Assembly (NCBI GenBank): GCA_021513695.1
Contig: CP084166.1
Span: forward strand, 128,001-192,000
Reading direction: 5' to 3'
Length of the DNA: 64,000 bases
Source: Candidatus Heimdallarchaeum aukensis
GTDB taxonomy: Archaea > Asgardarchaeota > Heimdallarchaeia > Heimdallarchaeales > Heimdallarchaeaceae
Below are positions 1,743 to 41,208 of this stretch, in pieces; the first letter of the stretch is position 1; the number at the start of each line of letters is the position of its first letter. The notes beneath the pieces are model-generated. The model saw only the letters and a program-made list of their open reading frames with translations. It had not been told where the DNA came from and did no database searches. The position numbers and the translations under genes are program-made.

Positions 1743-2170
1743 TTATCTTCGTCTAAAGAGTTTTCTCCAAAATAAAATCTTAGTTTTAAGATTAATACTA
1801 CACATTGGCTCTTTTTCTATAATTTTTAATTCAAGGAGATCTTTATCAAAAGATTCGAAAATTCCAAGGTCAGAATATCCCCTTCCAATTTCTCCTTCGT
1901 ATTTTTTAATAAATTGTTCATGGAGCAGTAAAAACTATAATTATTCCTCTTTCTTCATCTGTTTTAAAGTATAATTTTAAATTAGTAAAAACTACTTTTT
2001 CTTTACTCTTGTTAACCAAAACTTTCTTTGGAATATGCATATAGAGCAGCTAAAAAGCTAGTTTGAAGGGTGTGATCGGGTCTCATCTTGCAAGTTTTTC
2101 CACCAAAACACTTGCTGTAATAAGGAATTCCACTTTTATCTAAAATAAAAATATCATCTGGTATAATTTT
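1743..2170 (-). pseudogene. Roadblock/longin-like gene disrupted by two frameshifts
   Basis: Three consecutive reverse-strand frames read as one roadblock-like domain: IFILDKSGIPYYSKCFGG...TLQTSFLAALYAYSKESFG* / (V)NKSKEKVVFTNLKLYFKTDEERGIIIVFTAP* / LLHEQFIKKYEGEIGRGYSDLGIFESFDKDLLELKIIEKE...*. Track ORF 2012-2233 covers only the first piece, and its 5' end overlaps the 2154-2702 gene. Confidence 0.4.
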
Positions 2171-2702
2171 CCATTTTCTCTTTTCGTGACTGCTTAGTAA
2201 CATTGCCTTTAGACAAAAGTTCACAAACATCAAGAGGACAATTTAAGCATACTTTAGCATTGTAATCAAATCTTTTTGAAGTAAATATTCTTTTTATGAT
2301 AAAAAAAGCGAATGTTACTGCAATTGGGATAACTATTCGATACCATAGTATCTTGTCAACGAAAGAATAAAAAATGCTTGAAAAAATAATATACATAGAA
2401 GAAGCAGAAGAAAAACCTAACAAAAAGCGTGCTATGTCTTTAATTATTCTTTTCATTTCAAAAAAAACTGTAAAAATTGTTGGAATAAAAGTTAAAATTA
2501 TAATTAATAGCAATGCAGGGACATCTAGAACTTTGTAAAAAGAGAAAGATAGGTAAAAAACTACCCCTATTGCTAATCCTGAATAAAAGTTTGTGCACCC
2601 TCTGCAGATTCTATATCCATTAATTATATATACATGATTAGCAAAAAATGAACAATTAGGGTGATGTGACCAAGTATCTTTATCTTTAGGAAGAAGTTTC
2701 AT
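2154..2702 (-). CDS. Polytopic membrane protein with N-terminal Cys motif (DUF2085-like)
   Basis: HHPNCSFFANHVYIINGYRICRGCTNFYSGLAIG matches the H..RSF...G...CxRCxGxY pattern of DUF2085 membrane proteins. It is followed by 4-5 hydrophobic helices and a C-terminal CLNCPLDVC. Confidence 0.6.
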   Translation of the reverse strand: MKLLPKDKDTWSHHPNCSFFANHVYIINGYRICRGCTNFYSGLAIGVVFYLSFSFYKVLDVPALLLIIILTFIPTIFTVFFEMKRIIKDIARFLLGFSSASSMYIIFSSIFYSFVDKILWYRIVIPIAVTFAFFIIKRIFTSKRFDYNAKVCLNCPLDVCELLSKGNVTKQSRKEKMENYTR

Positions 2703-2740: not shown

Positions 2741-3187
2741 TTGTTCGATATATTTTTATTGTTCACTATATTTTCCATTTTAATGAACTCCAACTCAAAG
2801 AAAAGTGATGAAAGCACAATAAAAAAAGAAAACAAACAAAGCAATGACGTTATAAACAAGGCCAAAAAAAGTGCTGGTAAGACTGCGGAGAAAAAATCAT
2901 ATGAAGAAAAAGAAGAACTACTAATTAGTGAACTTAAATCTGTTAACAGATCATGGATAAAAAACCCCTATTTGTTTTGGATTTGTTTAATCGCAGGTCC
3001 TGCGTGGTTTGTTGGAGCATTATTTGTACCACTAGAAAGCACATTGTTAAGTTGGATACAAGCTATTTTCTTTTTCTTAAGTGTTGGTTTCTCAATTCTG
3101 CCATTAAGTTACTTGTTTAATCTTCTATGGATAGAATTACTTAAAAAACAAGAAAAAAAAAGAATTAGTCAAAAATCAGAAGAATAA
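2741..3187 (+). CDS. Hypothetical membrane protein with a Lys/Glu-rich linker
   Basis: The ORF has a TTG start (alternative ATG at 2783). It has a hydrophobic N-terminus, a charged low-complexity middle and two C-terminal TM helices (LFWICLIAGPAWFVGALFV, AIFFFLSVGFSILPLSYLF). Confidence 0.5.
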   Translation: MFDIFLLFTIFSILMNSNSKKSDESTIKKENKQSNDVINKAKKSAGKTAEKKSYEEKEELLISELKSVNRSWIKNPYLFWICLIAGPAWFVGALFVPLESTLLSWIQAIFFFLSVGFSILPLSYLFNLLWIELLKKQEKKRISQKSEE

Positions 3188-3298
3188 ACATAAAAATCTT
3201 TATTCTTCAATGTCTTACTAATATTCTTAAATTCTTTTATTAAATAAATAATAAATAATTTGCATATATTTATTAATGTCTGTTTAAAATTCACCTTT

Positions 3299-6200
3299 AT
3301 GAGTATAAAAAGCAAAAAAATTTTTTTGTCTTTTATTATTATTATGTTTATTACTTTAACAATAAATAGTGTAAAAGCTGAAGAGCAAGCAGCTCCTATT
3401 TTATATACGAAGTATTCTTCTTACACCAATATAGTTGAGTCAGTTTTTGACGAGAATAATCAAATGCATATTTTTCTCGGTCGTTCAGATGAATTTAATT
3501 ATAAAATCTTACATATCTTTAATGGAGAAGCGATACTCATTGATGCTGGTGTAAATAACATAGAAAGATTTTTCAAAGCAAAAATCTTCCCTGGAGGAGT
3601 TGCATTATTCTATTTAGATCACGATATTACAAAAGGAGATACATTATACTATTATTATTATTTCATAAATAACGGTTCACATGGCCTCAAGGTAATAACA
3701 AAATCAGGATTAGCATCTAATTATAAAATCAATATATTTCAGGATAACTCCAGATTTACAATTATTACTTCGTATAGTATTTCCTATTATACAAGTGCAA
3801 TAAAAAGCTTTAACTGCAGTTTTAGCGGAGAAATTTTAGACTCTGAAAGTTATGATGTTGAAGTCTCAATTTACAAGATAAAAGGATTCGTCTTTCAGAA
3901 TGAAAAAATATTCTTTTATTTTTACAAAGATGTTTATAACGCTAGTGCTTACCTCTCTTTTCTCTATGTTCAAGGGATAAACGAAAATGGACATATTTTC
4001 AATTCGAGCGTAATTGAATATCCTAATAGTTATTCAGAAACAATTATAACGCAAGGAATCAAAAAAGATTTTTATATCCAAACTATACAAGATGGTCAAA
4101 TTTTTTATTATTCTTTTAATGAAAATGAGACTTTTAGTTTCAGTGACTATAATTCTGCAGATTTTTATATTTACTATTATAACGAATATTCTATCGAGTA
4201 CACAGGTAATTGGATAAACACGACTTTCATAGAGTATGAATACATGTATTATAGTGACTTCTCTTATTCTTCAACTATTAACATTTTAGCTATCGTTACT
4301 TCATATAATTCAGAACAAATGTTGTTTGCAAAATTTGAAAAAACTATAACTTTTCAAGAAAGCTTTTTCCAATACTCAGTAGACATTGCTCTCGATGGTC
4401 CTTATTATTATATGTTTATTGCCACTAAAAGTACTGAAAAAATCCACTTTAATGAAACTGAAGTTTTAGGATTATATGTTCTCACAGATGATCCTAATTT
4501 TGTTCCACCTAAAGAACCAATATACTATGAAATCAAGCATATCTCCAATTTTACCTATTTCATGAAAAATTATTGGTGGACCCTTTTAATCGGTTTCGGT
4601 TTCATTGGTGGAATGTACGGTATTTTCCACAAGAGGATTAATAAGTCAATTCGCAAAATGAAAAAATTCCTGTTAAGACCTGTTGTGGACAATGTTTCTA
4701 CTGCTAAACTAATTTTAATCAACATTTGGCTATTTTTCTTTAATACTTATAGTTTAGTTCTTTCTTTGTGGAGAGTTAATAAAAAAAGACTAATAATAAA
4801 CATTCTTGGTCTTTCAATTCTTGCGTTTGTTCTGATAAACACTTCAGTACTTTATAATTCAGAACAGGCAACTGTTCTTCAGAAATATTTTGACAACCAT
4901 GACTTTGGTTCTAATTATGATACTTCTGTAGATTTTACAAAGACATTTATTGAACAATCAAAAACCGCTGAAAATATTTCCTTAATTAATGAAAATTATA
5001 CTTTATTAGCTGCAGAAGATATAATGAAATCTTTGAAACAAAAAGCTCCTACTTTAGCTTCCTTAATAGTTGATTATCAACTAACCAGTTTAATTACTAT
5101 CACAGGTTCAAACGTTACTTACGGAAATGAAGATATTCAATATTATTCAATAAACTCAAGCTATAATTTTGTTTTACAATCACTACTAGTTAATGGTACT
5201 TTGCCTAATAAAAAAGGAGAAGTAATTGTTTCTAGTAGTGTTGCTGAATATTATGACTTTCAAGTGGGTGAAGTAATACAATTTCAAGCAGTAAGCTATA
5301 AAGGTGCTTTCCTAAATTATGATGTAGTCAACCTAACTGTTTCTGGAATTTTTTCTAGTATTGGTTACAATACTTTGCGACAACTATGCGCAGATAATGA
5401 TCTACCATTTGATCCTGTTAGATATCTTACCTCTAACATGTTTTCAGCTATCGCTTTTAACAAATACTTCTTAAAAAATCTAGAAAATATCTCTTTAGGA
5501 CAACTAACCTTGTACGGAGATTTAGAGTTTATTTATGACTTTTCTTCGCTTGATCTAGAATCCTTTGAAAAACTAGTTGAAGAATATGAGTATTTAACTG
5601 AAAATCCTACTCAATACTTTAAATTTGATCCCAATGGTACCTGGTCATTAAGTTACGAGTTACGATATGTTATAATATATTTCCAATATGACCTAATAAT
5701 CATGCGGTTTTTAATCTATTTACTAACAATACCTATAGTCTTCTTAGCTTTATTTTTATTAAGTGAAGTTAACTCTATCTTTGCTTCAAGTTTTAAACAA
5801 GAGATAGAAATATTACAATCCCAAGGATTATCTGTTGGAAGAATAACTTTCATTTATTCTTCAATGAAATTCGGAGAGTCAGTTGTTGGAACAGTATTTG
5901 GACTTCTTGGAACATTTATATTTACACCAATTCTTTTAAAAGTTGATAAATTTCTACAATTTACGAACCCAATTTATCATTTTACTTTAAAGGGTAGCTT
6001 ATCTACAATTTTCATAACCTTTTTTGCTTTAATCATAGCTTCTCTCCCTCGAATTATTAGATTGGCAAAACAATCTGAAAAGAAACAAAAAGAACCAAGA
6101 AGATTTGTAACTCTAATAAAACGATTAAGAATACATTACTTTTTAGTCGTTATTTTTGGCGGAATTATTGCTTTCGGGGGATATTATTTAGCTGCTATTT

Positions 6201-7579
6201 TCACTTGGGTTTTTGAAGATTCATTTACTTCTCTCCTTGCTGTTTTTGTCAGCTTAATGGGAATAGGAGCTATGATTTCTATTTTCGGTATCGGATTAAT
6301 AATCAGAGAATTACATAATCTTCTCCTCATAATAGTCAGTAAATTGTCTTGGAAAGTTAAGAAATCTATAGGTTCCTTTTCATTAATTGAAGTTCGTTCT
6401 GATGCTAAGTTATTTACAAATACCTTTTTCTCATTTCTACTAATAATAGCTTTTGTAGTCCCTTCAATTATTGTTCCTTTGGCAATACAGGACCATTTCG
6501 TAAATATATCTTATTTCTCTTCTGGATCAGATGTTTATATTTCTAGCTGGTCTCTGTATAATGCTTCTAAGTCAAATATTACTTCTTACGATGAAGTAGT
6601 AAGTGTTGCTAATATTAGTGTTATAGAAACTACATATGGAGAACTCAACTTCCGTTTTCTAGTAATAGATAATTTAACAGAGTTCCGTTCTACAATATAC
6701 GATGTTCCAAAATACATAATGCCTGATTTTGATGAACTTCTATCCAAATTAGAACAAAATGATACTATGCTAGTAAGTAAGTTGTTTAACAAAGTTTTTC
6801 TTTCTCCTGAAACTTTTACCTTCACATCAGCTAATGAATCACTCAATAAAGAAATTCGAGTTGGAGGAGAGTTTACATACTTCCCTATCTTTTTCTTTGG
6901 CGATCGGTGGTTAAACGATAATTTTGAAATTTATTATTACGATTACATATGGTTTACTTTTCATATTGTCTTGACAAATCAAACTTTTACAGAAATCAAA
7001 GAAACTTTGAAAACACCTACTGTAGTTGTTGATAGACTCTTAATCAAACTTAAACCTAATTCTAATCCCATTAAATTTACTGAAAAAATTAAAAGAGATC
7101 TAAATATTGATTCAAGAAGTACGAAAGAACTAGCTGACTCAACTCTGTTTCAAGCCTATCCTTTCTATAGTGTTTTAACTTCGATGTTTGTTTATACAAT
7201 ACTAATGAGTATATTTGCAGTTGCTTTTATCAGTCTGAGTAATCCTTTGAAACTCTTGATACAGAAATCATCAAAGAATGACATTTTAAGAAAACTGGGT
7301 GTAAGGGTGAATAGAATTATTAACATATCTGCTTTTGAAATCTTTGTTTCAAGTTTTATACCTGGGATGATTCTTGGAGGACTTAGTGCCTACGGATTGT
7401 ATGTATTTTTCAAATACATTTTTATTGACTTTGGTTGGCGCGGTCTACCATACAAGAGTTACATGTTCTTCCCTGTTACTGGCGTTGTTATAGGCATATT
7501 TGGAGCATTATATTATGTCATCTTCTACTTCTCTATGAAGATGAATTTCTATAAATATAGACCTAGAAATTTGGAGTGA
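3299..7579 (+). CDS. Giant MacB/FtsX-type ABC permease (two FtsX modules plus ~430-aa N-terminal ectodomain), locus 1
   Basis: Signal/anchor MSIKSKKIFLSFIIIMFITLTINSVKA. The ectodomain is rich in Tyr/Phe/Asn with many N-x-S/T sequons. There are two MacB-like units: TM RLIINILGLSILAFVLINTSVL, FtsX-like EIEILQSQGLSVGRITFIY... and, near the C-terminus, ILRKLGVRVNRIINISAFEIFVSSFIPGMILGG. The stop overlaps the ATPase start. The track start at 3260 is TTG; the ATG at 3299 is preferred. Confidence 0.8.
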   Translation: MSIKSKKIFLSFIIIMFITLTINSVKAEEQAAPILYTKYSSYTNIVESVFDENNQMHIFLGRSDEFNYKILHIFNGEAILIDAGVNNIERFFKAKIFPGGVALFYLDHDITKGDTLYYYYYFINNGSHGLKVITKSGLASNYKINIFQDNSRFTIITSYSISYYTSAIKSFNCSFSGEILDSESYDVEVSIYKIKGFVFQNEKIFFYFYKDVYNASAYLSFLYVQGINENGHIFNSSVIEYPNSYSETIITQGIKKDFYIQTIQDGQIFYYSFNENETFSFSDYNSADFYIYYYNEYSIEYTGNWINTTFIEYEYMYYSDFSYSSTINILAIVTSYNSEQMLFAKFEKTITFQESFFQYSVDIALDGPYYYMFIATKSTEKIHFNETEVLGLYVLTDDPNFVPPKEPIYYEIKHISNFTYFMKNYWWTLLIGFGFIGGMYGIFHKRINKSIRKMKKFLLRPVVDNVSTAKLILINIWLFFFNTYSLVLSLWRVNKKRLIINILGLSILAFVLINTSVLYNSEQATVLQKYFDNHDFGSNYDTSVDFTKTFIEQSKTAENISLINENYTLLAAEDIMKSLKQKAPTLASLIVDYQLTSLITITGSNVTYGNEDIQYYSINSSYNFVLQSLLVNGTLPNKKGEVIVSSSVAEYYDFQVGEVIQFQAVSYKGAFLNYDVVNLTVSGIFSSIGYNTLRQLCADNDLPFDPVRYLTSNMFSAIAFNKYFLKNLENISLGQLTLYGDLEFIYDFSSLDLESFEKLVEEYEYLTENPTQYFKFDPNGTWSLSYELRYVIIYFQYDLIIMRFLIYLLTIPIVFLALFLLSEVNSIFASSFKQEIEILQSQGLSVGRITFIYSSMKFGESVVGTVFGLLGTFIFTPILLKVDKFLQFTNPIYHFTLKGSLSTIFITFFALIIASLPRIIRLAKQSEKKQKEPRRFVTLIKRLRIHYFLVVIFGGIIAFGGYYLAAIFTWVFEDSFTSLLAVFVSLMGIGAMISIFGIGLIIRELHNLLLIIVSKLSWKVKKSIGSFSLIEVRSDAKLFTNTFFSFLLIIAFVVPSIIVPLAIQDHFVNISYFSSGSDVYISSWSLYNASKSNITSYDEVVSVANISVIETTYGELNFRFLVIDNLTEFRSTIYDVPKYIMPDFDELLSKLEQNDTMLVSKLFNKVFLSPETFTFTSANESLNKEIRVGGEFTYFPIFFFGDRWLNDNFEIYYYDYIWFTFHIVLTNQTFTEIKETLKTPTVVVDRLLIKLKPNSNPIKFTEKIKRDLNIDSRSTKELADSTLFQAYPFYSVLTSMFVYTILMSIFAVAFISLSNPLKLLIQKSSKNDILRKLGVRVNRIINISAFEIFVSSFIPGMILGGLSAYGLYVFFKYIFIDFGWRGLPYKSYMFFPVTGVVIGIFGALYYVIFYFSMKMNFYKYRPRNLE

Positions 7580-9333
7580 TAAAAGTGATACAAGCTGATG
7601 ATTTATTAAAAGTATATTATGACCCTATTACTGAATACAAAGTTGCTGCTTTAAGAGGGTTATCTCTTGATATTAAAGAAGGTCAGTTAGTTAGTATAAT
7701 AGGCCCTTCTGGTTCAGGTAAAACAACCTTAATTAACATTTTAGCCGGACTTGATGTTCCTACAGGTGGAAGAGTAATTGTTAAGGGTCAACAATTAGAT
7801 AAAATGACAGAAAGAGAAAGAAGAGAGTTTAGGTATTATAATATTGGTTTAATTAATCAGTTTATAAGCCAGAACTTGTTTCCAAGACTCACTGTAATAG
7901 AAAATCTGATGATACCTAAACGTATGTTTTGTCTTCCTCATGAAACAGCTAAAAAAGAAGTAGAAGAGTTACTCGAACTTTTGAGATTAAAGCATATAGC
8001 AAAGAATAATGTAGAAAAAATATCTGGAGGAGAAGCAATTCGGTTGTCTCTTGGAGTAGCCTTAGCAAAGAATCCTGATATTTTGTTGTGTGACGAACCT
8101 ACAGGTCAATTAGACAATATGCATACTAAAGAAGTAGTTGAAACTATTAAAGATGTAAATATTACCATGGGTAAAACAATACTTGTAGTTACCCACGATA
8201 TTCGCTTTAGGACTGTTTTTGAACGAAGTTTCATCATTCGTGATGGCCGTCTTGCTGGAATTAGTGTGGATATTAATAGGAATCAACTAGAATTTCTTAT
8301 GGAATCTTCTGAAATGAAGAGATCTTATGTAGACCCTTCTAATTTCGCTAGAATTCCAGATGAAATAAAACGCAGTTTAGGCATTAAAGACACTGTTGAA
8401 TATGATCTTCATCCTTCGAAAAAGATTGGTTTAATTTGGAATCCTGATTTGATAACTAGAGAAGATATTTTCCACATATTAAACAACCCAGAAGAAGAGT
8501 ATGAAGAGACAGTAGATCAAATAAGCTATGAAGATGTAGAACCTATTCTCTCTCGAAGTTTTGTACCTCCTGAAAAAGAAGAACCTATTATTAAAATAAG
8601 TAATTTGAAGAAAGGATATCCTTCTCCAGCTGGATATAATCTTGTACTAAAGGGTATTAACTTATCAATTAATAAAGGAGATTTTGTTTTTATTTCTGGT
8701 CCCAGTGGAGTAGGTAAGACTACGCTCTTTAATTGTATTTCAGGATTAGATAAGATTGATGATGGACATGTAGAAATAATGGGTTTTGATATCAAAAACC
8801 AACCAGAACCTCTTATTTCTGATTTTAGATTAAAGCACATATCTTATATCACTCAGCACAATAACCTTTTTGAACCGCTATTAGTTGAAGATAACCTTTT
8901 CTTACCTTATTTGTTTTTAGGAGAGAAGATAGATATAGATTATGCCAAAAAAATAATGAAAGAATGCTTTATTGATCATAAAATTAAGTCTTACCCTGAT
9001 GAACTTTCTGCAGGAGAAAAACAACGTGCAGCACTAGCTACTAGTTTGGCAAGGAAAACATCTATCCTTATTGCTGATGAACCCACTGCTAATCTTAATT
9101 CTGAACTTGCCCGTTCAATAATTAATCTTTTTATGGATATATCTAAGCTAGAGCAAAAAACAGTTATTATCTGTTCTCATGATTTGAGTTTATTACGTCC
9201 AGGATTTAGACATATTCGTCTATCAGATGGTCAGATAGCGGAAGATTATCGTGTAACAAAAGAGCAATTACAAGAGATTATTACAGAATACCTTAGCATT
9301 CAAAAGAACAAAAAAAATGAATCTATTACGTAA
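7576..9333 (+). CDS. ABC transporter ATPase with two fused NBDs, locus 1
   Basis: NBD1: Walker A GPSGSGKTT, signature ISGGEAIRLS, Walker B ILLCDEPT, H-loop VVTHD. NBD2: GPSGVGKTT, LSAGEKQRAA, ILIADEPT, ICSHD. A ~110-aa inter-NBD linker contains ARIPDEIKRSLGIKDTVEYDL (AbrB/SpoVT-like pattern). The GTG at 7576 overlaps the permease stop; an alternative GTG lies at 7585. Confidence 0.9.
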   Translation: MIKVIQADDLLKVYYDPITEYKVAALRGLSLDIKEGQLVSIIGPSGSGKTTLINILAGLDVPTGGRVIVKGQQLDKMTERERREFRYYNIGLINQFISQNLFPRLTVIENLMIPKRMFCLPHETAKKEVEELLELLRLKHIAKNNVEKISGGEAIRLSLGVALAKNPDILLCDEPTGQLDNMHTKEVVETIKDVNITMGKTILVVTHDIRFRTVFERSFIIRDGRLAGISVDINRNQLEFLMESSEMKRSYVDPSNFARIPDEIKRSLGIKDTVEYDLHPSKKIGLIWNPDLITREDIFHILNNPEEEYEETVDQISYEDVEPILSRSFVPPEKEEPIIKISNLKKGYPSPAGYNLVLKGINLSINKGDFVFISGPSGVGKTTLFNCISGLDKIDDGHVEIMGFDIKNQPEPLISDFRLKHISYITQHNNLFEPLLVEDNLFLPYLFLGEKIDIDYAKKIMKECFIDHKIKSYPDELSAGEKQRAALATSLARKTSILIADEPTANLNSELARSIINLFMDISKLEQKTVIICSHDLSLLRPGFRHIRLSDGQIAEDYRVTKEQLQEIITEYLSIQKNKKNESIT

Positions 9334-9335
9334 AA

Positions 9336-9359
9336 TTGTTTTTTTTTAGAAATTTTTTT
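9336..9359 (+). terminator. Oligo-T tracts after the ABC ATPase (candidate archaeal terminator)
   Basis: T9 (9339-9347) and T7 (9353-9359) runs lie immediately 3' of the stop at 9333. Archaeal RNA polymerase terminates at oligo-T. Confidence 0.3.
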
Positions 9360-9386: not shown

Positions 9387-9770
9387 ATGAAAAAAAATGT
9401 AAGAACACAAGCTAGAGATACTTTAGATTTTCTAGGAAGAATGAGAGTTTATTTCTTAAGAGGGCATAATAGTTGGTTTTACCTAGTTTTTTATTTTGTA
9501 AATTTCACATTAATTTTCTACAACCTACTAATAGAAAAACTATATTTTATCCCAGACTGGGTTTCATTCTGGAAATTCGCCTTGCTTTTTATTATTCTTT
9601 ATCCTCCTATTGCAATAATTGTAGGTAGATTCGATTATAGAAAGGGGACATATAAAGGAGAACAAGAAGTTCAATTAGCAGTAAATCCTCTATGGAAAAA
9701 AAATTTCCAGCGTCTAGATGACTTAGAAAGAGAAATTAAAGAGTTAAAGAACTTATTACTTCAAAAATAG
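9387..9770 (+). CDS. Small two-TM membrane protein with C-terminal coiled-coil tail
   Basis: 127-aa ORF with TM segments WFYLVFYFVNFTLIFYNLLI and FALLFIILYPPIAIIVG and the tail LDDLEREIKELKNLLLQK. It sits between the ABC ATPase and the large surface protein on the same strand. Confidence 0.55.
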   Translation: MKKNVRTQARDTLDFLGRMRVYFLRGHNSWFYLVFYFVNFTLIFYNLLIEKLYFIPDWVSFWKFALLFIILYPPIAIIVGRFDYRKGTYKGEQEVQLAVNPLWKKNFQRLDDLEREIKELKNLLLQK

Positions 9771-9818
9771 TTTTTCCTCCCTCAAAAAATATATAATTAA
9801 TGTTCCTTAATATAGGTT

Positions 9819-12758
9819 ATGAAAAAGTCTACACTCTTTTTTCTTCTATCTTTTCTAATTTTAAATATATCAAGTTTAATGTATGGATCATCTAATTCTA
9901 ATGTGAATAAGTATGTTGTTTCTTTAAATAGTAAGAATTTAGATTCTACAGAAGACACAATTTCATACCAAATAGAATCAAGATCTTATTCTCGCTCAAT
10001 TAGGAAAGATACTACAAACTACTATAGTTGGATAGAAAGTAGAAGCCTTTCAAGTGCAAAAGATCTAGCATTCTTCATGCTAGAGCAATTCGATTTTAAC
10101 TCAATACAAGTTACAAATGTTCATGATCTGGCTTTAGTTCACTTTGCAATAGCTTATATTGACCTTTTCTTTGCCACTTACAATCCTGATTATCTTTATA
10201 CAGCTCACTGGATTGTTAATAATAGTCTATTTTTAGATATAAACAAAAATATGATTGCTCTAGATACAAAAACTACCGACTATAAGGTATTTGCCTATGA
10301 TAATCTTTACTTGGTTTTAATGTATGAAAGATTTGCCAAAGCTTATGAAGCAACCTTTGATTTTCTAGTTGCTGATACTTTTTGGACTCTAGCTGATAAT
10401 TTGATGAACAATATTACAACTATTTTTTATGATGAAACTAATCACATTATCAAAGAATATGCTTTTATTTCAAGTACTGATTGGTCTGTTATTAATTCAT
10501 CTAGTTACACAACAGCAGAAATAGCTGGATTATACTCCATGGCTTCTCATGGTCTTAAGGATCCTACAAGCTACCATTCTCAAAGTTATGATGTAATTAA
10601 ATACTATTTCAACAACTATATTCAATATGTGAATCTAGGCGAAGGGTTCGATCGTTGGGCACCACTTAAAGGAACAAATCCGGCGATTAATGATACTCTC
10701 GCATTTACTGGAAGTGTTTTCTTGTCTTCTGCATACTTCTATGAAAGTAAGTACTTAAAGAGTCAAGGAAATACAACTTATGAAGATTTATTCTTTGTAT
10801 ATGGACAATGGTTGTTAGAGGATGCTCTAGCTATATTTTATAATTCAGAATACAATTTGCCGGTGTCAACGTATAACATTACTTCTAGCACTAAAGGAAC
10901 TATTATTTCAGCGTTTGATAGTACATTAGCTGCATTAGCTCTTAGAGAGTTTAATAGATACCATCTAGAGAAATATGGTTTTTCTCCAGGTGAACTTGCT
11001 ATTTCCATAATTACTACAACACAGGGTGTTTTCAAGACAGCTAATTTTTACGATCCTGGATTATCTACAGATCAAGGAATTTTTTCCTATAAAATAGATG
11101 AATATAGGAAAAACCCCTTTGTTATCAATTCAATGGCAATTTCAATGGAATTAAAGAAATATGCGTTAGCAGCTGATTTATCTGTTCCTGAATTTATTTA
11201 TACTAATGAAACTGTTGACATTTTCTGGACTATTTTCTGGAGTGAGAGCACAAATATCTTTAGTTACTCTAATGCCTCTTTTGCTACAAGTTTTGATTTT
11301 ACAATAGACAGTGTTCTTAATTTCACAGCTAACGATACTATAATAATAAATACATTTTCCATTGACGCTGTCCAAGTTACAGAACCCACTAGTTTCTATG
11401 TAAACACTACAGTAAGTGAAGGAGGAGATTACTACCCGAGATTCACCATTTCTATAGGTGAAACAACTGTAATTGATCATGAAAGTAGCATTTACGTTTT
11501 AAGAGAATTAAGGGTATACACTGATCCATCTAGGATTCAAGCGACTCAAGGGGTTGATGAATATTTAGAATTCTCTATCTTATGTGAAGATGAAAAAGGT
11601 ATTTCAGTACCAAAAGTTTCTTTATCTCTAACTTGGCTCGGTAATACTACTAATGTAATTTCAAACAATGCTGGTTCATATGATTTTAAAATGTCAGTGA
11701 AAGATATTTTAGCTCTACCAGAATTTACAAACAATCCTGATGAAAATCCAAGATTTGATTTCGAAATATATGCAACTAAAGATGGGTTCGTTGAATTTTG
11801 GTTAATTAAAACCATAACAATAAGAAGAAATGCTCTTATTCTTGAACTCTCACAAGATTTAGCTGTGAAAAGAGGAAATGATTTGACACTAACTATAGGC
11901 GTACAACCTCAAATACAAACATTAGTTCTTAATCCTAAAGCTTCAATCTATCTGAACGGTGAAGATATTTCAAATGAAGTTTCTCAAAGTATGGACCCAA
12001 GATTTGCTCCGAAGTTAATGCCTATTCCTCTTCCAGCTCAAATAACTTTACCAACAAAAGATTTGAAAGAAAATGCTAATTTAGTTATTGAGATAACAAG
12101 TAATAACTTTCCAACAGAACGTTTTGAGTATGAGATCGAAATAATACCGTTAAACACTTTTGAAGCTATTTATCAATGGTTATCTGACGTGTTCTCATCA
12201 ACTCTAGGGAAAATACTAGGTTCTCTCAGTGTTATTTGGGCAGTTCTGTGGAAACAATTCTCTCTCTATGTTCTACACATTATTAAACGCTGTCCCTATT
12301 GTGGTGAAACAGTGAAAAGAAGATATTCAACTTGTAGATATTGTGGAAACATAATTGATAGGTCAAAGTATGTTCAAACAAAAATGAAATTTTTACCTGA
12401 AGATACAGAGCATGATCATAATCCAAAAAACAATTTTAATCTTGATAAAAATCCAAGTCCAAAAGAAAATCTTAAGTCAAAAGATTCAGGTTTAACTTCA
12501 ATTCCTTTCGATGAGAACACTTATACAGAGCCTAAGTCTCCTTCTGAAGATACTTATACAGAGCCTAAGTCTCCTTCTGAAGATACTTATACAGAGCCTA
12601 AGTCTCCTTCTGAAGATACTTATACAGAGCCTAAGTCTCCTTCTGAAGATACTTATACAGAACCTGAGCCTTCTTCTGAAGATGCTTATACAGAACCTGA
12701 GCCTTCTTCTGAAGATACTTATACAGATTCAGAAAAAGATGAAAGCAATTGGTTTTAG
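9819..12758 (+). CDS. Large secreted/surface protein with C-terminal TM anchor, cytosolic zinc ribbon and repeat tail
   Basis: Signal peptide MKKSTLFFLLSFLILNISSLMYG and a ~800-aa ectodomain with many N-x-S/T sequons. TM segment ILGSLSVIWAVLWKQFSLYVLHII is followed by CPYCGETVKRRYSTCRYCGN (CxxC-x10-CxxC) and then 11-aa repeats TYTEPKSPSED. Confidence 0.75.
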   Translation: MKKSTLFFLLSFLILNISSLMYGSSNSNVNKYVVSLNSKNLDSTEDTISYQIESRSYSRSIRKDTTNYYSWIESRSLSSAKDLAFFMLEQFDFNSIQVTNVHDLALVHFAIAYIDLFFATYNPDYLYTAHWIVNNSLFLDINKNMIALDTKTTDYKVFAYDNLYLVLMYERFAKAYEATFDFLVADTFWTLADNLMNNITTIFYDETNHIIKEYAFISSTDWSVINSSSYTTAEIAGLYSMASHGLKDPTSYHSQSYDVIKYYFNNYIQYVNLGEGFDRWAPLKGTNPAINDTLAFTGSVFLSSAYFYESKYLKSQGNTTYEDLFFVYGQWLLEDALAIFYNSEYNLPVSTYNITSSTKGTIISAFDSTLAALALREFNRYHLEKYGFSPGELAISIITTTQGVFKTANFYDPGLSTDQGIFSYKIDEYRKNPFVINSMAISMELKKYALAADLSVPEFIYTNETVDIFWTIFWSESTNIFSYSNASFATSFDFTIDSVLNFTANDTIIINTFSIDAVQVTEPTSFYVNTTVSEGGDYYPRFTISIGETTVIDHESSIYVLRELRVYTDPSRIQATQGVDEYLEFSILCEDEKGISVPKVSLSLTWLGNTTNVISNNAGSYDFKMSVKDILALPEFTNNPDENPRFDFEIYATKDGFVEFWLIKTITIRRNALILELSQDLAVKRGNDLTLTIGVQPQIQTLVLNPKASIYLNGEDISNEVSQSMDPRFAPKLMPIPLPAQITLPTKDLKENANLVIEITSNNFPTERFEYEIEIIPLNTFEAIYQWLSDVFSSTLGKILGSLSVIWAVLWKQFSLYVLHIIKRCPYCGETVKRRYSTCRYCGNIIDRSKYVQTKMKFLPEDTEHDHNPKNNFNLDKNPSPKENLKSKDSGLTSIPFDENTYTEPKSPSEDTYTEPKSPSEDTYTEPKSPSEDTYTEPKSPSEDTYTEPEPSSEDAYTEPEPSSEDTYTDSEKDESNWF
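12519..12727 (+). repeat. In-frame 33-nt tandem repeat (6 full units plus a partial unit)
   Basis: The unit acttatacagagcctaagtctccttctgaagat starts at 12519, 12552, 12585 and 12618 (four perfect copies). Variant units (gaacctgagccttct) start at 12651 and 12684, and a partial unit starts at 12717. It encodes TYTEPKSPSED / (T/A)YTEPEPSSED. Confidence 0.9.
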
Positions 12759-12772
12759 TTTAAGATTAAAAT

Positions 12773-14098
12773 TTACTCAAAACTTTCAATTATTCCTTTT
12801 TTTATTATTTCATTTTTACATTCTTCAGGACAGATAAGTAGGCTATTATGTTTTGGTTTAGATAGACTTTGAACCACTTCTGATACTTCTGAAAGCTGTT
12901 TAACTGTTCCATCTTTCATTTTAACTAAAATTGCATTTCTATTTTTTTCTTCATATGGAGTATAGTATCTTGAATAAAAACTATCAATTCCCCAAAATTC
13001 TTTAGGATAATTAAATTTTTCAATTATTCTATCTATCTCATCGCTGTTTTTAAGCAATTTATTTGCAGTTTCTTTAGTAATTGGTATACTCTTAAACAAT
13101 TTTCTTCTTAACAATCTTTTTGCAAGATCTTCTAGAACTTTATTTTCTTCCTCTTTCAGTGCTGATAACTGAATTTGCGTATAAATTGTATCATCGGTTA
13201 AAGGTAACATTGTTTTCCAATACGGATTTTTAATGAAATTTTCAAGAAAAGGTAGTAGTACAATCTCAATTCCTTCTTCTTCACTTCTTATTAGTTCATA
13301 AATAAATGTTTTAACCATGAATTCCCAACATCTAACAGTTTTATGAAAATAAACTCTCGCAAATTGCATGTATCTAGCAACAACAATTTGTTCAACAGAT
13401 TGTAATCCTTTCTCTTTAATAATAATATTTCCATCATTAGAGATATTTAGCATAGCAATAAGCCTATCAATGTTGTATAAACCATAAGAAACGCCTGTTT
13501 CTAATGAATCTCGCATCAGATAGTCAATACTATCTCCATCAAGTTGAGATGCAATTATCTGGTTTAGAAAAGGTTTCCCTTCTATTTCTTTTCCAATAAT
13601 CAAGTGGGCAATTTTTCGTTTATTAAATCCTTTTTCTTTTAATATCTTTCCAATCTCAGATTCGTCAGATAGAACTATCTGTTCTGTAATGTTTTCATGT
13701 TTTTGGAATGGTTTAAACTTTTTAACGTTTTTTTCATTTTTGCAGAATTTAGTAAATATATCTTCAAACATGTGACTAAAAGGACCATGACCTATATCAT
13801 GAATCAAGGAAGCTATTCTAACATAATCAACATCTTCCTCTGAAACTATATCAGAGTGTTTATGTTTTAGTGATGTGATCATCCTGTTAGCTATATGAAA
13901 AGCTCCTAAACTATGTGCAAATCTACTGTGAGTGGCAGAAGGATATGAAATTTGTACTCCACCTAGTTGTCCTAATCTTCTTAACCTCTGAAACTCTGAA
14001 GTGTCTATTAAGTTTAAATAAAATTTATCAGGAATAGAGATATATTTATGGACTGAATCAGCGATTTGAACGATTTTACTATTCGTGTTAAAACTCAT
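12773..14098 (-). CDS. HD-domain phosphohydrolase (SAMHD1/dGTPase-like, COG1078 type)
   Basis: RFAHSLGAFHIA ... ASLIHDIGHGPFSH gives the H...HD...D metal-binding signature. The 441-aa length is typical of archaeal HD phosphohydrolases. Confidence 0.85.
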   Translation of the reverse strand: MSFNTNSKIVQIADSVHKYISIPDKFYLNLIDTSEFQRLRRLGQLGGVQISYPSATHSRFAHSLGAFHIANRMITSLKHKHSDIVSEEDVDYVRIASLIHDIGHGPFSHMFEDIFTKFCKNEKNVKKFKPFQKHENITEQIVLSDESEIGKILKEKGFNKRKIAHLIIGKEIEGKPFLNQIIASQLDGDSIDYLMRDSLETGVSYGLYNIDRLIAMLNISNDGNIIIKEKGLQSVEQIVVARYMQFARVYFHKTVRCWEFMVKTFIYELIRSEEEGIEIVLLPFLENFIKNPYWKTMLPLTDDTIYTQIQLSALKEEENKVLEDLAKRLLRRKLFKSIPITKETANKLLKNSDEIDRIIEKFNYPKEFWGIDSFYSRYYTPYEEKNRNAILVKMKDGTVKQLSEVSEVVQSLSKPKHNSLLICPEECKNEIIKKGIIESFE

Positions 14099-19291: not shown

Positions 19292-20251
19292 TCATTTTTC
19301 TTCTTCATCATCATTTAACAAGCTACTGAAGGCTGCTCTTAATTCATTTTGAAGTGATTCTTTCATTTGCTTTGTAGATTTTTTAGGAGTAGCTGGTGTA
19401 GGCTCTGATACTGGGCTTACTTCATCTGATTCTTCCATTCGTTGAGATCTTCTTTGTTGAGCAGCTTTAACTTCTGAAAGTAAAGCTTGTTGTGGAGAAA
19501 GAGGTCTTGATGCTTGTGCAGCTTGTTCTCTCTCTTTTTTATGAGCATCAGGATCAACTTTCTTTAATTTTGCTTTTGCTTCCAGAATTGCTGAAGCTGT
19601 TGGTCCACCTAATGGTCCCACACCTCCCCCACCCATAGGTCCTGGGCCAGGAGCTGGTGATTGTTGCACTGGAGCTTTTTGTAATTTTGCTTTTGCTTCC
19701 AGAATTGCTGAAGCTGTTGGTCCACCTAATGGTCCCACACCTCCCCCACCCATAGGTCCTGGGCTAGGTGCTGGTGATTGTTGCACTGGAGCTTTTTGTA
19801 AAGATTTGGCAGCATTAGCTATCTCGCTAGCAAATCCTGGAGAACCTGGCCCTGCTCCTAGATTAGGAGCTGGTGCAGGAGCTCCACTTAAATTTGGTGT
19901 TGGAGCTGGTCCCCCTAGATTAGGCGCAGAAGTCGCTCCACCCCCTATATTTGGCGCTGGAGCTGGTCCAGAACTCAATTTAGGTGCAGAAGGTATCGAG
20001 GGACTTGGAGTACTTCCACCTATACTTGGAGCACTAGGCATTCCCATTCCTCCTCCAGGTGCTCCACCTAATTTATTCTCCAAAGCTGTTATTCGCGCAT
20101 CTAATTCGTTAATAGCATCTTCAATTCTTTCTGTAGATTTGATCATAATACTTCCAAAGTTTTCAAGAAGTCTAGTTAATTTTGCAATCGCAGTTTTCGT
20201 AGGGGAAGAACCTTCAGATAATAAATTGTCTAGGTACTCATCAATTGACAT
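19292..20251 (-). CDS. Coiled-coil plus Pro/Gly-rich low-complexity protein with repeated amphipathic LQKAP/LKKV segments
   Basis: N-terminal helix ...RIEDAINELDARITALENKLGG. Then AP.PNLGG-type repeats, followed by FASEIANAAKSLQKAP, SAILEAKAKLQKAP and SAILEAKAKLKKVD, and an acidic tail. The track start at 20254 is TTG; the ATG is at 20251. Confidence 0.7.
   Translation of the reverse strand: MSIDEYLDNLLSEGSSPTKTAIAKLTRLLENFGSIMIKSTERIEDAINELDARITALENKLGGAPGGGMGMPSAPSIGGSTPSPSIPSAPKLSSGPAPAPNIGGGATSAPNLGGPAPTPNLSGAPAPAPNLGAGPGSPGFASEIANAAKSLQKAPVQQSPAPSPGPMGGGGVGPLGGPTASAILEAKAKLQKAPVQQSPAPGPGPMGGGGVGPLGGPTASAILEAKAKLKKVDPDAHKKEREQAAQASRPLSPQQALLSEVKAAQQRRSQRMEESDEVSPVSEPTPATPKKSTKQMKESLQNELRAAFSSLLNDDEEEK
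19566..19799. repeat. Two tandem 117-nt near-identical repeats inside the Pro/Gly-rich gene
   Basis: aattttgcttttgcttccagaattgctgaagctgttggtccacctaatggtccc... starts at 19566 and again at 19683. The copies differ only around ccaggagct versus ctaggtgct. Each encodes a 39-aa unit QKAPVQQSPAP.PGPMGGGGVGPLGGPTASAILEAKAKL. Confidence 0.9.
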
Positions 20252-20335
20252 CAAATATCAAAATATACTAGACTGAAAACTATAAAAAGACTTTGTTAAT
20301 GCATAATGAAAAAGAAAAATTAATTGTTCTTGAAA

Positions 20336-23031: not shown

Positions 23032-24774
23032 TTATTTGTCATTGATTTTTACTTGTAAGAAATACTCAATTATTTCTTTCAAATCTTTCTTTGTTATACG
23101 TTTATCTGACTGAATTCCACCTTTTTCTAAGACTATGTGTCTCATTCCTGGTCTTAACAAACTAAGATCATGCGAGCAAATAATTACTGTTGTTTGTAAT
23201 TTTTCTGCAACATCCATTAATACATCAATTATGGCTCTTGCCAAATCACTATCTAAATTAGCTGTTGGTTCATCTCCTATTAGAATAGGCGTTTTTCTTG
23301 TTAATGCAAGTGATAAGGAAGCTCGTTGTTTTTCTCCAGCAGAAAGTTCATCAGGATAAGCTTCTAACTTATGTTTTATTTGACATTCCTCAACCATATT
23401 TAGAGAGTACTCTTCATCATAGTCTAATTTAGAAAACAGATAAGGGACAAGAAGATTATCTTTAACTGTAACAGGTTCAAAGAGGTTATTATGCTGAGTG
23501 ATATAAGCAATGTTCTTTAATCTAAACATTGATGTTTCATATTCATCTTTATCATGAAGTGAAACATTATTGATAATTATTTCTCCTTTATCTGCTTTTA
23601 CAAGTCCTGTAATGCAATTAAAAAGGGTAGTTTTTCCTACTCCACTGGGCCCAGTAATCATTACGAAATCTCCTTTTTTAACTTCTAAGTTAATGTTTTT
23701 TATTACTTGATTATAACCTGCTGGAGAATGATATCCTTTGGAAACTCCTTTTAATTGCAAAATATTTTCTCTACTCTCTATGAAGTTGAATTTTCTGCTA
23801 ATAATTTTTTCAATTTCTTCATAAGAAATTTCTCGAGATTCTTTAATCGCTTCGTCAACTGGTTTATTCAAAATCTTGTATATTTCTTCTCTATTTACTA
23901 TATCAGGATTCCAAAATAAACCAAGAGATCCAGCAGGATGAGCGTCAAATTCTACTACATCATAAAGCTTTGTTTTCATCTTTATTTGATCAGGTATTCT
24001 AAGAAGGCTATTTTTATCTAAGTAAGCCCGATTATTTGTAGAAGAACTTGTCATAAATTCAAGTTTATCTTTTTCCATATCTTGACTTACTCCTACTAAT
24101 CTCCCATCTCTAATGATAAAGCTATGTTTGAATACATTTCTAAAGCGGATATCGTGAGTCACAACAACAATAGTTTTACCCGTGTTCTCGTTAATATCTT
24201 TTATAGTATTAATTACTTCTTTAGTATGCTCAGTATCTAATTGACCTGTAGGCTCGTCAAGAAGTAGAAATTTAGGATTTTTAGCTAAGGCTGCACCTAA
24301 AGATAAACGCATAGCCTCTCCACCAGAAATGCGAGAAACGAGATTATTTCGCACATGATATAAGTTTAACAGTTCTAAAATTTCCTTGACTTCTCTTCTG
24401 GCTTGCTCTCTTGGAATGTAAAATAATTTTTTGTGTATCATAAGATTCTTTTCAACAGAGAGATTTGAGAATAAGTTATCGCTAATATTTTGATTGATCA
24501 ACCCAATGTATCTGAATCTGAACTCTCTTAGTTGTTTTTGAGACATTTTTTCTAAATGATGGTTGTCAATAATGACTGATCCTCCAGTAATATCTTCTAA
24601 GCCAGATAAAATCTTGATTAATGTGGTTTTTCCTGCTCCAGAAGGACCAACTATACTTACAAGATCACCTTTTTCTACATATAAATCTAATCCTCTTAAA
24701 GCAGCAACTTTATAATCAGAATGAGGGTCGAAATAAATTTTAAATAAATCAATACATTGTATCATTTTTATCAC
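23032..24774 (-). CDS. ABC transporter ATPase with two fused NBDs, locus 2 (paralogue of 7576-9333)
   Basis: GPSGAGKTT / ISGGEAMRLS / LLLDEPT / VVTHD, then GPSGVGKTT / LSAGEKQRAS / ILIGDEPT / ICSHD. It is collinear with the locus-1 ATPase, including the linker LRIPDQIKMKTKLYDVVEFDAHP. The GTG at 24774 overlaps the permease stop; an ATG lies at 24765. Confidence 0.9.
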   Translation of the reverse strand: MIKMIQCIDLFKIYFDPHSDYKVAALRGLDLYVEKGDLVSIVGPSGAGKTTLIKILSGLEDITGGSVIIDNHHLEKMSQKQLREFRFRYIGLINQNISDNLFSNLSVEKNLMIHKKLFYIPREQARREVKEILELLNLYHVRNNLVSRISGGEAMRLSLGAALAKNPKFLLLDEPTGQLDTEHTKEVINTIKDINENTGKTIVVVTHDIRFRNVFKHSFIIRDGRLVGVSQDMEKDKLEFMTSSSTNNRAYLDKNSLLRIPDQIKMKTKLYDVVEFDAHPAGSLGLFWNPDIVNREEIYKILNKPVDEAIKESREISYEEIEKIISRKFNFIESRENILQLKGVSKGYHSPAGYNQVIKNINLEVKKGDFVMITGPSGVGKTTLFNCITGLVKADKGEIIINNVSLHDKDEYETSMFRLKNIAYITQHNNLFEPVTVKDNLLVPYLFSKLDYDEEYSLNMVEECQIKHKLEAYPDELSAGEKQRASLSLALTRKTPILIGDEPTANLDSDLARAIIDVLMDVAEKLQTTVIICSHDLSLLRPGMRHIVLEKGGIQSDKRITKKDLKEIIEYFLQVKINDK

Positions 24775-29045: not shown

Positions 29046-29169
29046 ACCAATCTCCCATCGGATATGCCTTTTTTTGAACACTTTAAAATTTTCCTCTGTA
29101 AAAATATTTTTTAAATGAATAAATACTTCAAGAAAAGAATTTATATATTGCAAGTTCTTGTTAAGCAAA

Positions 29170-30492
29170 ATGTCCTCAAAAACCTCTAAAGACACAGAAA
29201 AATTAAGAAGTAAACTGAAAGACTTGTTATCAATACCCAGTTCTCTGTTAATAGTTTTTCTGACAACATTGTTAATGAGAGCCAGTTTTTATTTGGCAAT
29301 TGCAATCTTGAATTATCCTCATTATTTAACTCATCTTTCTTCAGTTCAAAAAACATGGATTTTTATTGTTTATCCATTAAGTGAATTATTAACTGTATTA
29401 TTTTTTGGAGTGCTATCTGATAAGATTGGGCGAAAGATTATTTATTACATTGGTCTAGGCACAACTGCGATAGCGATTTTATTATTTTCCTTTGTTTCAG
29501 AATTTGCATTATTATTGGTTGTTTCTTCAATATTGGGAATTGGTGCAGCTGCTCAAGTCGCCTCTACCTTATCTATTGTAGCAGATGAAGCTCCTGAAGA
29601 CAAAAGAGGGCGATTTATGGGTTTTTACGATGCGATGACACTTATAGGTTTAGGTTTAGGATTTGGAGGAGGTTTCCTCATTATGGAAATCTTGTTTGGG
29701 AATGAAGATGTTACGACGATGACTAGTTCCCAGCAAACTGAGTTTTACAAAAGAGTTGCAACAACGAGCGAAGTTCTTTTTGTAATTGCAGCTGTGTTGC
29801 TTTTTATTTCATTAGTAGTAGCAGTGGTATTGTTAAAAGGAAAACAATTTGTAAAATTCGGTAAAGAACAAACAATAAAAGAGAAGGTCAGTTTTATAAT
29901 TAAAGATAAAAATTTACGTTACTTGATGCCTGTTTGGGTACCAATAATCTGTCTTTATGCAATTGTATTGACTAATGCTGAAGAATTAGCTCACACACTG
30001 AACCTACATGACGTCAAACTACTTATCGTTCTTGCAGTTATTTTCGGTTCTATACTGATAGGCTTTCCTCTTAATGGAATATTAAGTGACAAAATAGGAA
30101 GAAAACCTTTTCTGTATATAGGCATGTTCTCTTTTGCCGGATTTGTTACAGTTCTAATAATTGGTGCAGAACAAGCTAAAGTTAACAATCCAAATCTACT
30201 ATTGTATCTATCTCCATTGATGTTTGTTCTAGGTATCGGTTGTGGAGCTTTTCCTCCAGCAGCACTAGCATTGTTAACTGATCTATCTCCAAAAGAAAAT
30301 TATGGGTCAAGTATGGGTGCTTATTCTGTAGTTTATGGAACTGGAATGATTATTGGTCCTCTCTCTGCAGAATATTCACAATCAGTTGGAGGTTTATTTG
30401 GATTAATCATTTTGATTTGGATTCTTTGTGCAATTAGTGTTGTTGGAACATTATTAGTTCCAAAACATCTTTTGAGCAAAGGATCTCATTAG
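29170..30492 (+). CDS. MFS transporter
   Basis: About 12 predicted TM helices. MFS motif A occurs in both halves: GVLSDKIGRKIIYYIGL and GILSDKIGRKPFLYIGM. The track TTG start at 29158 is likely an over-extension; the ATG is at 29170. Confidence 0.85.
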   Translation: MSSKTSKDTEKLRSKLKDLLSIPSSLLIVFLTTLLMRASFYLAIAILNYPHYLTHLSSVQKTWIFIVYPLSELLTVLFFGVLSDKIGRKIIYYIGLGTTAIAILLFSFVSEFALLLVVSSILGIGAAAQVASTLSIVADEAPEDKRGRFMGFYDAMTLIGLGLGFGGGFLIMEILFGNEDVTTMTSSQQTEFYKRVATTSEVLFVIAAVLLFISLVVAVVLLKGKQFVKFGKEQTIKEKVSFIIKDKNLRYLMPVWVPIICLYAIVLTNAEELAHTLNLHDVKLLIVLAVIFGSILIGFPLNGILSDKIGRKPFLYIGMFSFAGFVTVLIIGAEQAKVNNPNLLLYLSPLMFVLGIGCGAFPPAALALLTDLSPKENYGSSMGAYSVVYGTGMIIGPLSAEYSQSVGGLFGLIILIWILCAISVVGTLLVPKHLLSKGSH

Positions 30493-41199: not shown

Positions 41200-41208
41200 A
41201 GTAATTAC

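Follow-up and report, generated by a model that had tools for sequence, protein, structure and literature searches.

Organisation of the locus

The window analysed here is a stretch of 64,000 nucleotides (nt) from the complete genome of Candidatus Heimdallarchaeum aukensis (contig CP084166.1, positions 128,001 to 192,000 of the forward strand), with a G+C content of ~30%, in which the list of open reading frames (ORFs) places four plus-strand genes in a row. These encode a giant FtsX/MacB-type (type VII, 'ABC3') permease of the ATP-binding cassette (ABC) class (K9W45_00505, 3260..7579, plus strand), an ABC ATPase of LolD/FtsE/MacB type in which two nucleotide-binding domains (NBDs) are fused (585 residues; 7576..9333, plus strand), a small protein of 127 residues with two membrane segments (9387..9770, plus strand) and a large protein of 979 residues (9819..12758, plus strand), which is the main subject of this study. 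The large protein is identical to UJG40958.1 (K9W45_00520), deposited as a 'hypothetical protein'. It combines an (α/α)6 barrel, an Ig-like stalk, a conserved polar helix in the membrane and a cytosolic zinc ribbon towards the C-terminus, an arrangement found in Heimdallarchaeota only so far, and represents an uncharacterised family. An HD-domain gene, identified from the ORFs and Pfam, is convergent with the large gene across a gap of 14 nt. Searches of the window for Rfam families and tRNAs gave no hits.

Structure of the ectodomain

The large protein begins with a clear Sec-type signal peptide (aa 1-23; 9819..9887, plus strand), MKKSTLFFLLSFLILNISSLMYG, with a Kyte-Doolittle hydropathy of 1.78, in agreement with the initial annotation, which was made from the sequence without database searches. 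The peptide has no lipobox, and a lipoprotein reading was rejected on this ground. Scans of the protein against Pfam, NCBIfam and PADLOC returned nothing beyond a sub-threshold zinc ribbon.

The full-length AlphaFold model is poor (pLDDT 53.6) and already pointed to glycoside hydrolase family 76 (GH76). It was replaced by a domain model of aa 61-554, based on 15 family sequences from a search of 1.84 billion representatives, which reaches a pLDDT of 92.5 and a pTM of 0.91, consists of 12 helices and a β-sandwich, and gives concordant Foldseek matches. The 12 helices form a predicted GH76-like (α/α)6 barrel (aa 75-445; 10041..11153, plus strand), so that the toroid which the initial annotation had offered as an impression is strongly borne out. 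Models and Foldseek place approximately three β-sandwich (Ig-like) stalk domains after the barrel (aa 446-780; 11154..12158, plus strand), the first with a pLDDT of ~90 in the domain model and the others mostly at 57-77, with dips to ~45, in the full-length model; in Foldseek these domains have weak matches to transglutaminase, integrin and cadherin β domains.

Conserved polar residues of the barrel comprise D103, D115, N142, D161, N162, R171, Y204, Y263, D/E367, E377, R380 and N432, of which D103, D161-N162, D/E367, E377, R380 and N432 are located where helices 2, 4, 10 and 12 begin, or close by. In the model, this helix-start end would correspond to the usual pocket end of such barrels, and the barrel is under purifying selection (dN/dS ~0.1). 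Two other assignments were rejected: the AGE superfamily of epimerases and isomerases (N-acylglucosamine 2-epimerase, YihS, cellobiose 2-epimerase), as there is no conserved catalytic His pair and the barrel is extracellular, and a thioester protein of the α2-macroglobulin/complement type (a thioester-domain (TED) barrel with β-sandwiches), as there is no CGEQ-type motif and no Cys. The ectodomain had also been described as rich in glycosylation sequons, a description that does not hold: the 12 sequons compare with 10.3 ± 2.8 in composition-preserving shuffles, so that the count is explained by amino-acid composition and there is no enrichment.

The membrane helix and the cytosolic zinc ribbon

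The stalk leads into a juxtamembrane segment and membrane helix (aa 781-822; 12159..12284, plus strand), delineated from the model, hydropathy and conservation, with the invariant residues W811-K812-Q813-F814 (WKQF). The full-length AlphaFold model contains a helix at residues 780-792 and a continuous one at 795-821, with a pLDDT below 50 there. The Kyte-Doolittle maximum is 1.48 over 19 residues, with the invariant K812 and Q813 inside the helix.

A C4 zinc ribbon with the pattern CPYCGET-x-K-x-KY-xx-CRYCG follows directly (aa 823-851; 12285..12371, plus strand), supported by Pfam and the family alignment. Its ligands are spaced C825-x2-C828-x10-C839-x2-C842, and the sole other cysteine of the large protein is C589. 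The match to Pfam Zn_ribbon_3 (E 8.5e-5) is sub-threshold, at 22.3 bits against a gathering cutoff of 27, and the CxxC motif is invariant in the family. The succession of one membrane helix and a CxxC-x10-CxxC ribbon, as initially proposed, is thus present. Similar C4 knuckles of the 'KCPYCGE..K..A..CRYCG' type occur beside membrane segments in generic membrane-proximal zinc ribbons (Zn_ribbon_3/DZR/Zn_Ribbon_1; for example the N-terminus of TcaA), and ribbons of this type are also carried by unrelated proteins. In contrast to these generic ribbons, the one described here is C-terminal to a type I helix and is conserved family-wide with the polar helix as one unit.

Just ahead of the membrane helix, a stretch of 25 residues contains no K/R and five D/E, whilst the 30 residues after it contain eight K/R. 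These flanks obey the positive-inside rule, and the C-terminus and its tail are therefore placed in the cytosol, a location that the Cys4 ribbon also fits. By charge count the large protein is thus of type I with the C-terminus inside, and the proposed position of the tail on the cytoplasmic side of a surface protein is upheld.

Distribution and conservation of the family

Thirteen clusters are found at E<1e-30 among 1.84e9 proteins, and nine loci in the genome collection, all nine of them in Heimdallarchaeota genomes or metagenome-assembled genomes (MAGs). The full-length architecture is kept across the family, whereas conservation differs strongly between regions. Mean pairwise identity is 19.5% in the signal peptide and linker, 29.8% in the barrel and 30.5% in the β domains; it rises to 49.8% in the juxtamembrane segment and membrane helix, where WKQF is invariant, and to 54.5% in the zinc ribbon, the best-conserved segment, before falling to 17.3% in the tail. 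As identity is highest there, the helix with WKQF and the ribbon are taken to be the functional core on the inner side. Between H. aukensis and H. endolithica, evolution is fastest in the permease (78% amino-acid identity) and the large protein (81%); the ATPase and the small protein (95% each), the HD protein (94%) and UGDH (91%) have changed more slowly.

The repeat tail

The tail (aa 852-979; 12372..12755, plus strand) is acidic and rich in Ser/Thr, Pro and Tyr, as initially described, ends in DESNWF and, judged by composition and by the other family tails, is non-conserved. It includes a 33-nt coding minisatellite (12519..12727, plus strand; 209 nt), for which Tandem Repeats Finder (TRF) gives a period of 33, 6.3 copies and 96% matches. 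The first four units are identical 33-mers with the translation TYTEPKSPSED, the next two are variants that read T/AYTEPEPSSED, and the seventh is partial. The initial annotation had counted six and a half copies of TYTEPKSPSED; the array and its four perfect units stand, but units 5 and 6 differ and the array does not repeat one single peptide. An ORF of 108 aa in another frame (12511-12837, plus strand; LIQSLSLLLKI...) was rejected as a gene and is a by-product of the tandem array.

The repeat is limited to the genus Heimdallarchaeum. Copy numbers, taken from protein cluster members, are six plus a partial unit in H. aukensis, four in the JGI variant P0052 and two in P0001/P0057, which come from two separate contigs. 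Number thus varies among close orthologs in the comparison across strains that had been suggested. Proteins of the H. endolithica type have one or two units of a 10-11-residue variant, and relatives at 51% and 43% identity have no repeat. In comparison with the contig of P0001 (L018), the last 550 nt of the gene are 96-100% identical apart from one clean insertion of 132 nt, made up of precisely the four perfect 33-mers. As this insertion is seen relative to a near-identical strain, the expansion is very recent, as the identity of the four units had initially been taken to imply, and the array is real.

That the repeat number, or the gene itself, could be an artefact of assembly or annotation is accordingly judged extremely improbable. 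The DNA for Nanopore sequencing of H. aukensis was amplified by multiple displacement amplification (MDA), which bears on the exact copy number, and the genome paper describes, for species whose long-read data were poor, an assembly route that starts from Illumina reads and uses Nanopore reads for joining (PMC8813620). The 209-nt repeat is also near short-read length, and metagenome contigs break around the large gene. Against an artefact, independent assemblies hold two or four copies, with the two-copy tail in two separate contigs, the full-length ORF is conserved with a dN/dS of ~0.1, and the domain model is of high confidence.

The repeat is an ordinary coding minisatellite. Coding minisatellites of the contingency type occur in microbial surface proteins, in regions that are exposed or disordered; the present array resembles them in being perfect and in frame and in varying in copy number between near-identical strains. 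It differs from them in being cytosolic and in lacking on/off frameshifting, which is impossible with a unit of 33 nt. Another tandem repeat, of 117 nt x 2.1, lies in the window, and the Heimdallarchaeum genome paper reports many intragenic tandem repeats in these genomes (PMC8813620).

It had further been proposed that the tail is a repeated kinase or docking motif of a receptor-like protein, in which case the number of cytosolic 11-residue repeats would tune signalling output. The positive-inside rule does place the tail in the cytosol, the repeat is in frame, and its units hold S-P, acid-directed S/T-x-x-E/D patterns and a Tyr; a motif S/T-Y-x-D/E-x-P-x-S-E-D and an NWF(Q) end are common to H. 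aukensis-type and H. endolithica-type tails. Yet outside the one genus the repeat is absent, and the tails of the family, polar and acidic throughout, range from 17 to 136 residues and cannot be aligned (~17% identity). Copy numbers of two, four or six in near-identical strains point to weak constraint, no kinase or phosphatase lies among the scanned neighbouring genes, and tandem repeats within genes are common in these genomes. A kinase or docking function is thus very unlikely, and the repeat tail is better explained as a consequence of weak constraint than as a signalling device kept by conservation.

Several family tails that are otherwise unrelated share an ending in which an aromatic residue comes after acidic ones (DESNWF, DDQNNWFQ, EDDYQY, YSNYSNQY, NYSDQF and DSLFQ); other family tails lack it. 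A more speculative proposal takes the zinc ribbon, the acid-directed Ser/Thr sites, the repeated Tyr motif and the acidic-aromatic C-terminus (DESNWF; elsewhere NWFQ, DYQY, SNQY, SDQF) together as a eukaryote-style platform of short linear motifs, which would join a glycan-sensing protein to the Asgard cytoskeleton or trafficking, with repeat number tuning valency. The window also encodes a protein that is rich in Pro, carries WH2-like motifs and ends in acidic residues (see below). This has nothing beyond motif resemblance to recommend it, the poor conservation of the tails argues against it, and we consider it very unlikely.

Exchange of ectodomain alleles

The strain of L018 is nearly the same as that of the window genome: synonymous divergence (dS) is 0 in UGDH and 0.19 in the HD gene, and identity of the downstream DNA is for the most part 96-100%, falling to ~90% in places. 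In codons 1-650 of the large gene, dS is 0.75-0.95 with a dN/dS of ~0.1, and the ectodomain-coding DNA (9819-11770 of the window against 56-2000 of L018) is only ~80% identical. This dS is nearly as large as that between H. aukensis and H. endolithica (1.0-1.1). A recombination breakpoint lies in the last β domain. High ectodomain dS between near-identical strains, combined with a dN/dS of ~0.1, leads to the conclusion that these are old functional alleles swapped by recombination, and such exchange of divergent ectodomain alleles is typical of exposed surface proteins. Metagenome contigs break at the large gene, which is consistent with strain heterogeneity.

The ABC genes and the small protein

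The permease is 1439 residues long as an ORF and 1426 from the deposited start, which lies 13 codons further on than the TTG with which the ORF opens. It matches Pfam FtsX and MacB_PCD, both under the curated cutoffs, and is a 100% match to P0059, whose UniRef name is 'ABC3 transporter permease'; a homolog search found two Heimdallarchaeum proteins only. Its stop codon is overlapped by the start of the ATPase gene. The ATPase has two ABC_tran domains (Pfam E 7.5e-63), and its best NCBIfam matches are LolD (4e-99), FtsE and MacB. The weak FtsX/MacB_PCD matches of the permease together with a LolD/FtsE/MacB-like double NBD lead to assignment as a type VII, 'mechanotransmission'-type ABC system. 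Literature searches on Heimdallarchaeum and ABC transporters found nothing, and those on Asgard archaea and FtsX/MacB found no title dealing with this system. An anti-phage defence system was considered and rejected, as PADLOC gave no match for the large, small and permease proteins and only generic ABC-fold matches for the ATPase.

Two small membrane proteins are encoded upstream of the permease. One (2154-2702, minus strand) has 182 residues with Cys/His clusters at both termini; similar-sized ORFs occupy its upstream position in L001, L003 and L005, matched by size and position alone. The other (~2960-3190, plus strand) has ~134 residues and ends in ...PLSYLFNLLWIELLKK; its SYLFNLLWI motif is also found in ORFs of L005 and L008.

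The window contains a second, paralogous ABC locus on the minus strand (24771-29195 and 23032-24774). This is followed by a tRNA synthetase gene instead of accessory genes, and the initial statement that only the first locus has small and 979-residue genes downstream is therefore correct.

The 127-residue protein contains two hydrophobic segments by hydropathy (aa 30-50 and 52-84), in line with its initial description as a small two-membrane-segment protein, and a coiled-coil-like C-terminal tail; Pfam, NCBIfam and PADLOC gave no match. In L003 and L005 it is 78% identical, against 42-50% for the large protein there, and so is much better conserved than the proteins encoded beside it. Its gene lies between the ABC genes and the large gene only in Heimdallarchaeaceae, and a homolog of 46% identity (P0047; L015, 2024-2416), on a contig labelled Promethearchaeota by NCBI, has ThiS-like and xanthine-dehydrogenase-type genes as neighbours, and neither ABC genes nor the large protein in its vicinity. 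Owing to this unrelated context, the small protein is not a dedicated partner; as an accessory of the ABC locus it adjoins as described within Heimdallarchaeaceae, but not elsewhere.

Linkage of the large gene to the ABC genes

Permease and ATPase genes stand directly upstream of an intact large gene in the window, in H. endolithica (L001), in L003 and in L007, where the large protein is 28% identical. In L009 (10016-12154), from a low-coverage MAG, the ABC genes again lie directly upstream and the large gene is split into two ORFs. In L014 (5700-7600), the large gene has decayed beside intact ABC genes into short fragments that include N-domain pieces and the helix and ribbon, and a 276-residue secreted or anchored protein is inserted. 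Conversely, L005 retains upstream of its intact small and large genes only a 125-residue C-terminal NBD remnant of the ATPase (8912-9289; 64% identical to aa 454-577), the rest of the ABC locus being gone, and L008 has an intact large gene with no type VII ABC genes nearby. WKQF and the ribbon are kept in the large proteins of both. The tally is thus four genomes with ABC genes and an intact large gene, two with ABC genes and a split or decayed one (L009, L014), and two with an intact gene alone (L005, L008).

The distant loci are about equally similar to both paralogs of the window, slightly nearer to the first by ATPase identity, which makes a single ABC locus followed by the large gene the likely ancestral state. 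The description of the small and large genes as accessory genes of the ABC locus therefore holds as an ancestral linkage, but one lost in L005 and L008 and decayed in L014. The HD and UGDH genes lie downstream in all loci that reach that far.

Oligo-T termination and TATA promoters are established in archaea. A T9 run resembling an archaeal oligo-T terminator is found 6 nt past the ATPase stop codon (9339..9347, plus strand), one of two runs of T≥9 on the plus strand in 64 kb, and terminator-like T-runs follow both genes upstream of the large gene. A putative promoter element similar to a B recognition element (BRE) and TATA box, AAAAAATATATAATTA, lies ~25 nt upstream of the ATG of the large gene (9785..9800, plus strand); its BRE/TATA-like sequence AAAAAATATATAA is conserved in L001 and similar in L003. 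Given the established roles of such signals, the T9 run and TATA-like box may point to separate transcription units.

Proposed role of the large protein

The explanation of the whole that we favour, at slightly better than even probability, is that the large protein is a type I, glycan-directed surface protein with a helix-ribbon handle for a partner, an unconstrained tail and recombining ectodomain alleles. The barrel, outside the cell, would most likely bind or process a glycan, either one on the surface of the wall-less cell or one from the environment, since conserved acidic, amide and aromatic residues are modelled at the N-terminal ends of alternate helices. The approximately three Ig-like domains would hold the barrel away from the membrane, whilst the polar helix with WKQF and the cytosolic ribbon would provide a handle for a membrane partner. 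The likeliest partner would be the ancestrally adjacent FtsEX/MacB-type (type VII) ABC complex, which would link the state of the external domain to ATP hydrolysis in the cytosol, in loose analogy to the control of extracellular hydrolases by FtsEX; on this view it is the leading candidate, put forward tentatively. Past the ribbon, the tail would be free of constraint and, in Heimdallarchaeum, would have gained a 33-nt minisatellite, which grows and shrinks between near-identical strains through slippage or unequal recombination, and the ectodomain-coding part would persist as old divergent alleles exchanged by recombination.

The arrangement recalls FtsEX-type systems (EnvC-amidases, PcsB, RipC, and CwlO with SweC/SweD), in which an FtsX/MacB-type permease and an FtsE/LolD/MacB-type ATPase likewise stand beside a hydrolase-like extracellular protein, and the small membrane protein may be compared with the SweC/SweD co-factors (PMC6705773). 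The system described here differs in being archaeal and wall-less, in its 1439-residue two-module permease and fused double-NBD ATPase, and in a candidate partner that is itself membrane-anchored; its linkage is not universal.

Several points weigh against the favoured explanation, the first of which concern the barrel. As modelled, the barrel belongs by fold with six-hairpin glycosidase-like barrels, nearest to GH76, and shares the (α/α)6 fold with the GH76 α-1,6-mannanases (Bacillus circulans Aman6, Bacteroides BT3792/BT2949 and the fungal membrane-anchored Dfg5/Dcw1), differing from these in its helix and zinc-ribbon anchor, which replaces a glycosylphosphatidylinositol (GPI) anchor or secretion, and in the added Ig-like stalk. 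It fails, however, to resemble GH76 in sequence or in its catalytic dyad. Identity is 8-11%, and no match, to a glycoside hydrolase or to anything else, was obtained even at E 10, either with nine N-domain sequences against Pfam or with a profile against PDB sequences (E≤10). GH76 enzymes are marked by adjacent catalytic aspartates, such as D124/D125 in BcGH76 and D136/D137 in GH76A, whereas the family has no conserved Asp-Asp and no adjacent pair of acidic columns in at least five of the nine sequences; the nearest candidate is the conserved D161-N162. The barrel family also has no conserved His. On these sequence grounds the barrel may be a lectin-like module rather than a catalyst.

The remaining points concern the membrane partner. 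Known FtsEX effectors dock by coiled coils inserted into FtsX (PMC7668044, PMC6355983), and the predicted ectodomain models contain no long coiled coil. The membrane helix is only marginally hydrophobic. Coupling to the ABC genes is not obligatory, with intact large genes in the two loci lacking them (L005, L008) and a decayed one beside them in L014. The HD and UGDH genes are equally syntenic, so that the ABC adjacency may be inherited gene order, and the T9 run and the TATA-like box are more in keeping with separate transcripts than with simple co-transcription.

These last observations on gene content, gene order and the large gene's own transcription signals equally speak for a different explanation, doubtful in itself and nearly as likely as coupling to the ABC complex, namely that the protein acts at the surface on its own, as an adhesin, an enzyme or a glycan-binding protein, that it stands beside the ABC genes through inherited gene order only, and that its helix and ribbon self-associate or meet another partner. 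Recombining divergent ectodomain alleles would fit an exposed adhesin or receptor, and cultured Asgard archaea are reported to be without a cell wall and decorated with uncharacterised surface proteins thought to mediate contacts or adhesion (bioRxiv 10.1101/2025.11.30.690169). Against stand-alone function, adjacency of the permease and ATPase genes persists to 28% identity in most loci, and a 50%-conserved membrane helix in which a Lys-Gln pair is invariant is not typical of a passive anchor. Where the neighbouring ABC copy has been lost, the paralogous ABC locus could act in trans.

Other features of the window

A 320-residue protein (19292-20254, minus strand) has a layout similar to WASP/WAVE. 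Its N-terminal coiled coil has a weak, below-cutoff Pfam match to CCDC53, a subunit of the WASH complex (E 5e-4), and its long middle part is rich in Pro/Gly. It further contains WH2-like motifs, three in number, of which ASAILEAKAKLKKV is the clearest, and the acidic end LLNDDEEEK. The tandem repeat of 117 nt x 2.1 (19558-19801) doubles one WH2-like unit, and the extra copy is missing in the strain of L018. The WH2-like motifs are conserved in L001, L003 and L018, and the protein has no Pfam WH2 match; Asgard WH2-like motifs have been described in the literature for gelsolins, not for this protein.

A near-perfect direct segmental duplication, either real or an assembly artefact, covers ~41200-43500 and ~44600-46800 with a spacing of 3348-3350 nt, and carries a radical-SAM/wyosine-type gene and a 371-residue HEAT-repeat protein whose copies are 100% identical. 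Further downstream, a 663-residue Eco57I-type restriction-modification methylase with a TaqI_C specificity domain (47170-49161, minus strand) adjoins two large TPR proteins (49244-53474).

Implications

The family adds a concrete, Heimdallarchaeia-specific candidate to the surface proteins of Asgard archaea. Its conserved module of helix and ribbon must contact something in the membrane or inside the cell, and if the ABC complex is the partner, the system would be an archaeal counterpart, differently built, of the extracellular hydrolases controlled by FtsEX. The mosaic of old ectodomain alleles in near-clonal strains suggests that diversifying pressure acts on the locus, and viruses, partners or predators are examples of where it could come from.

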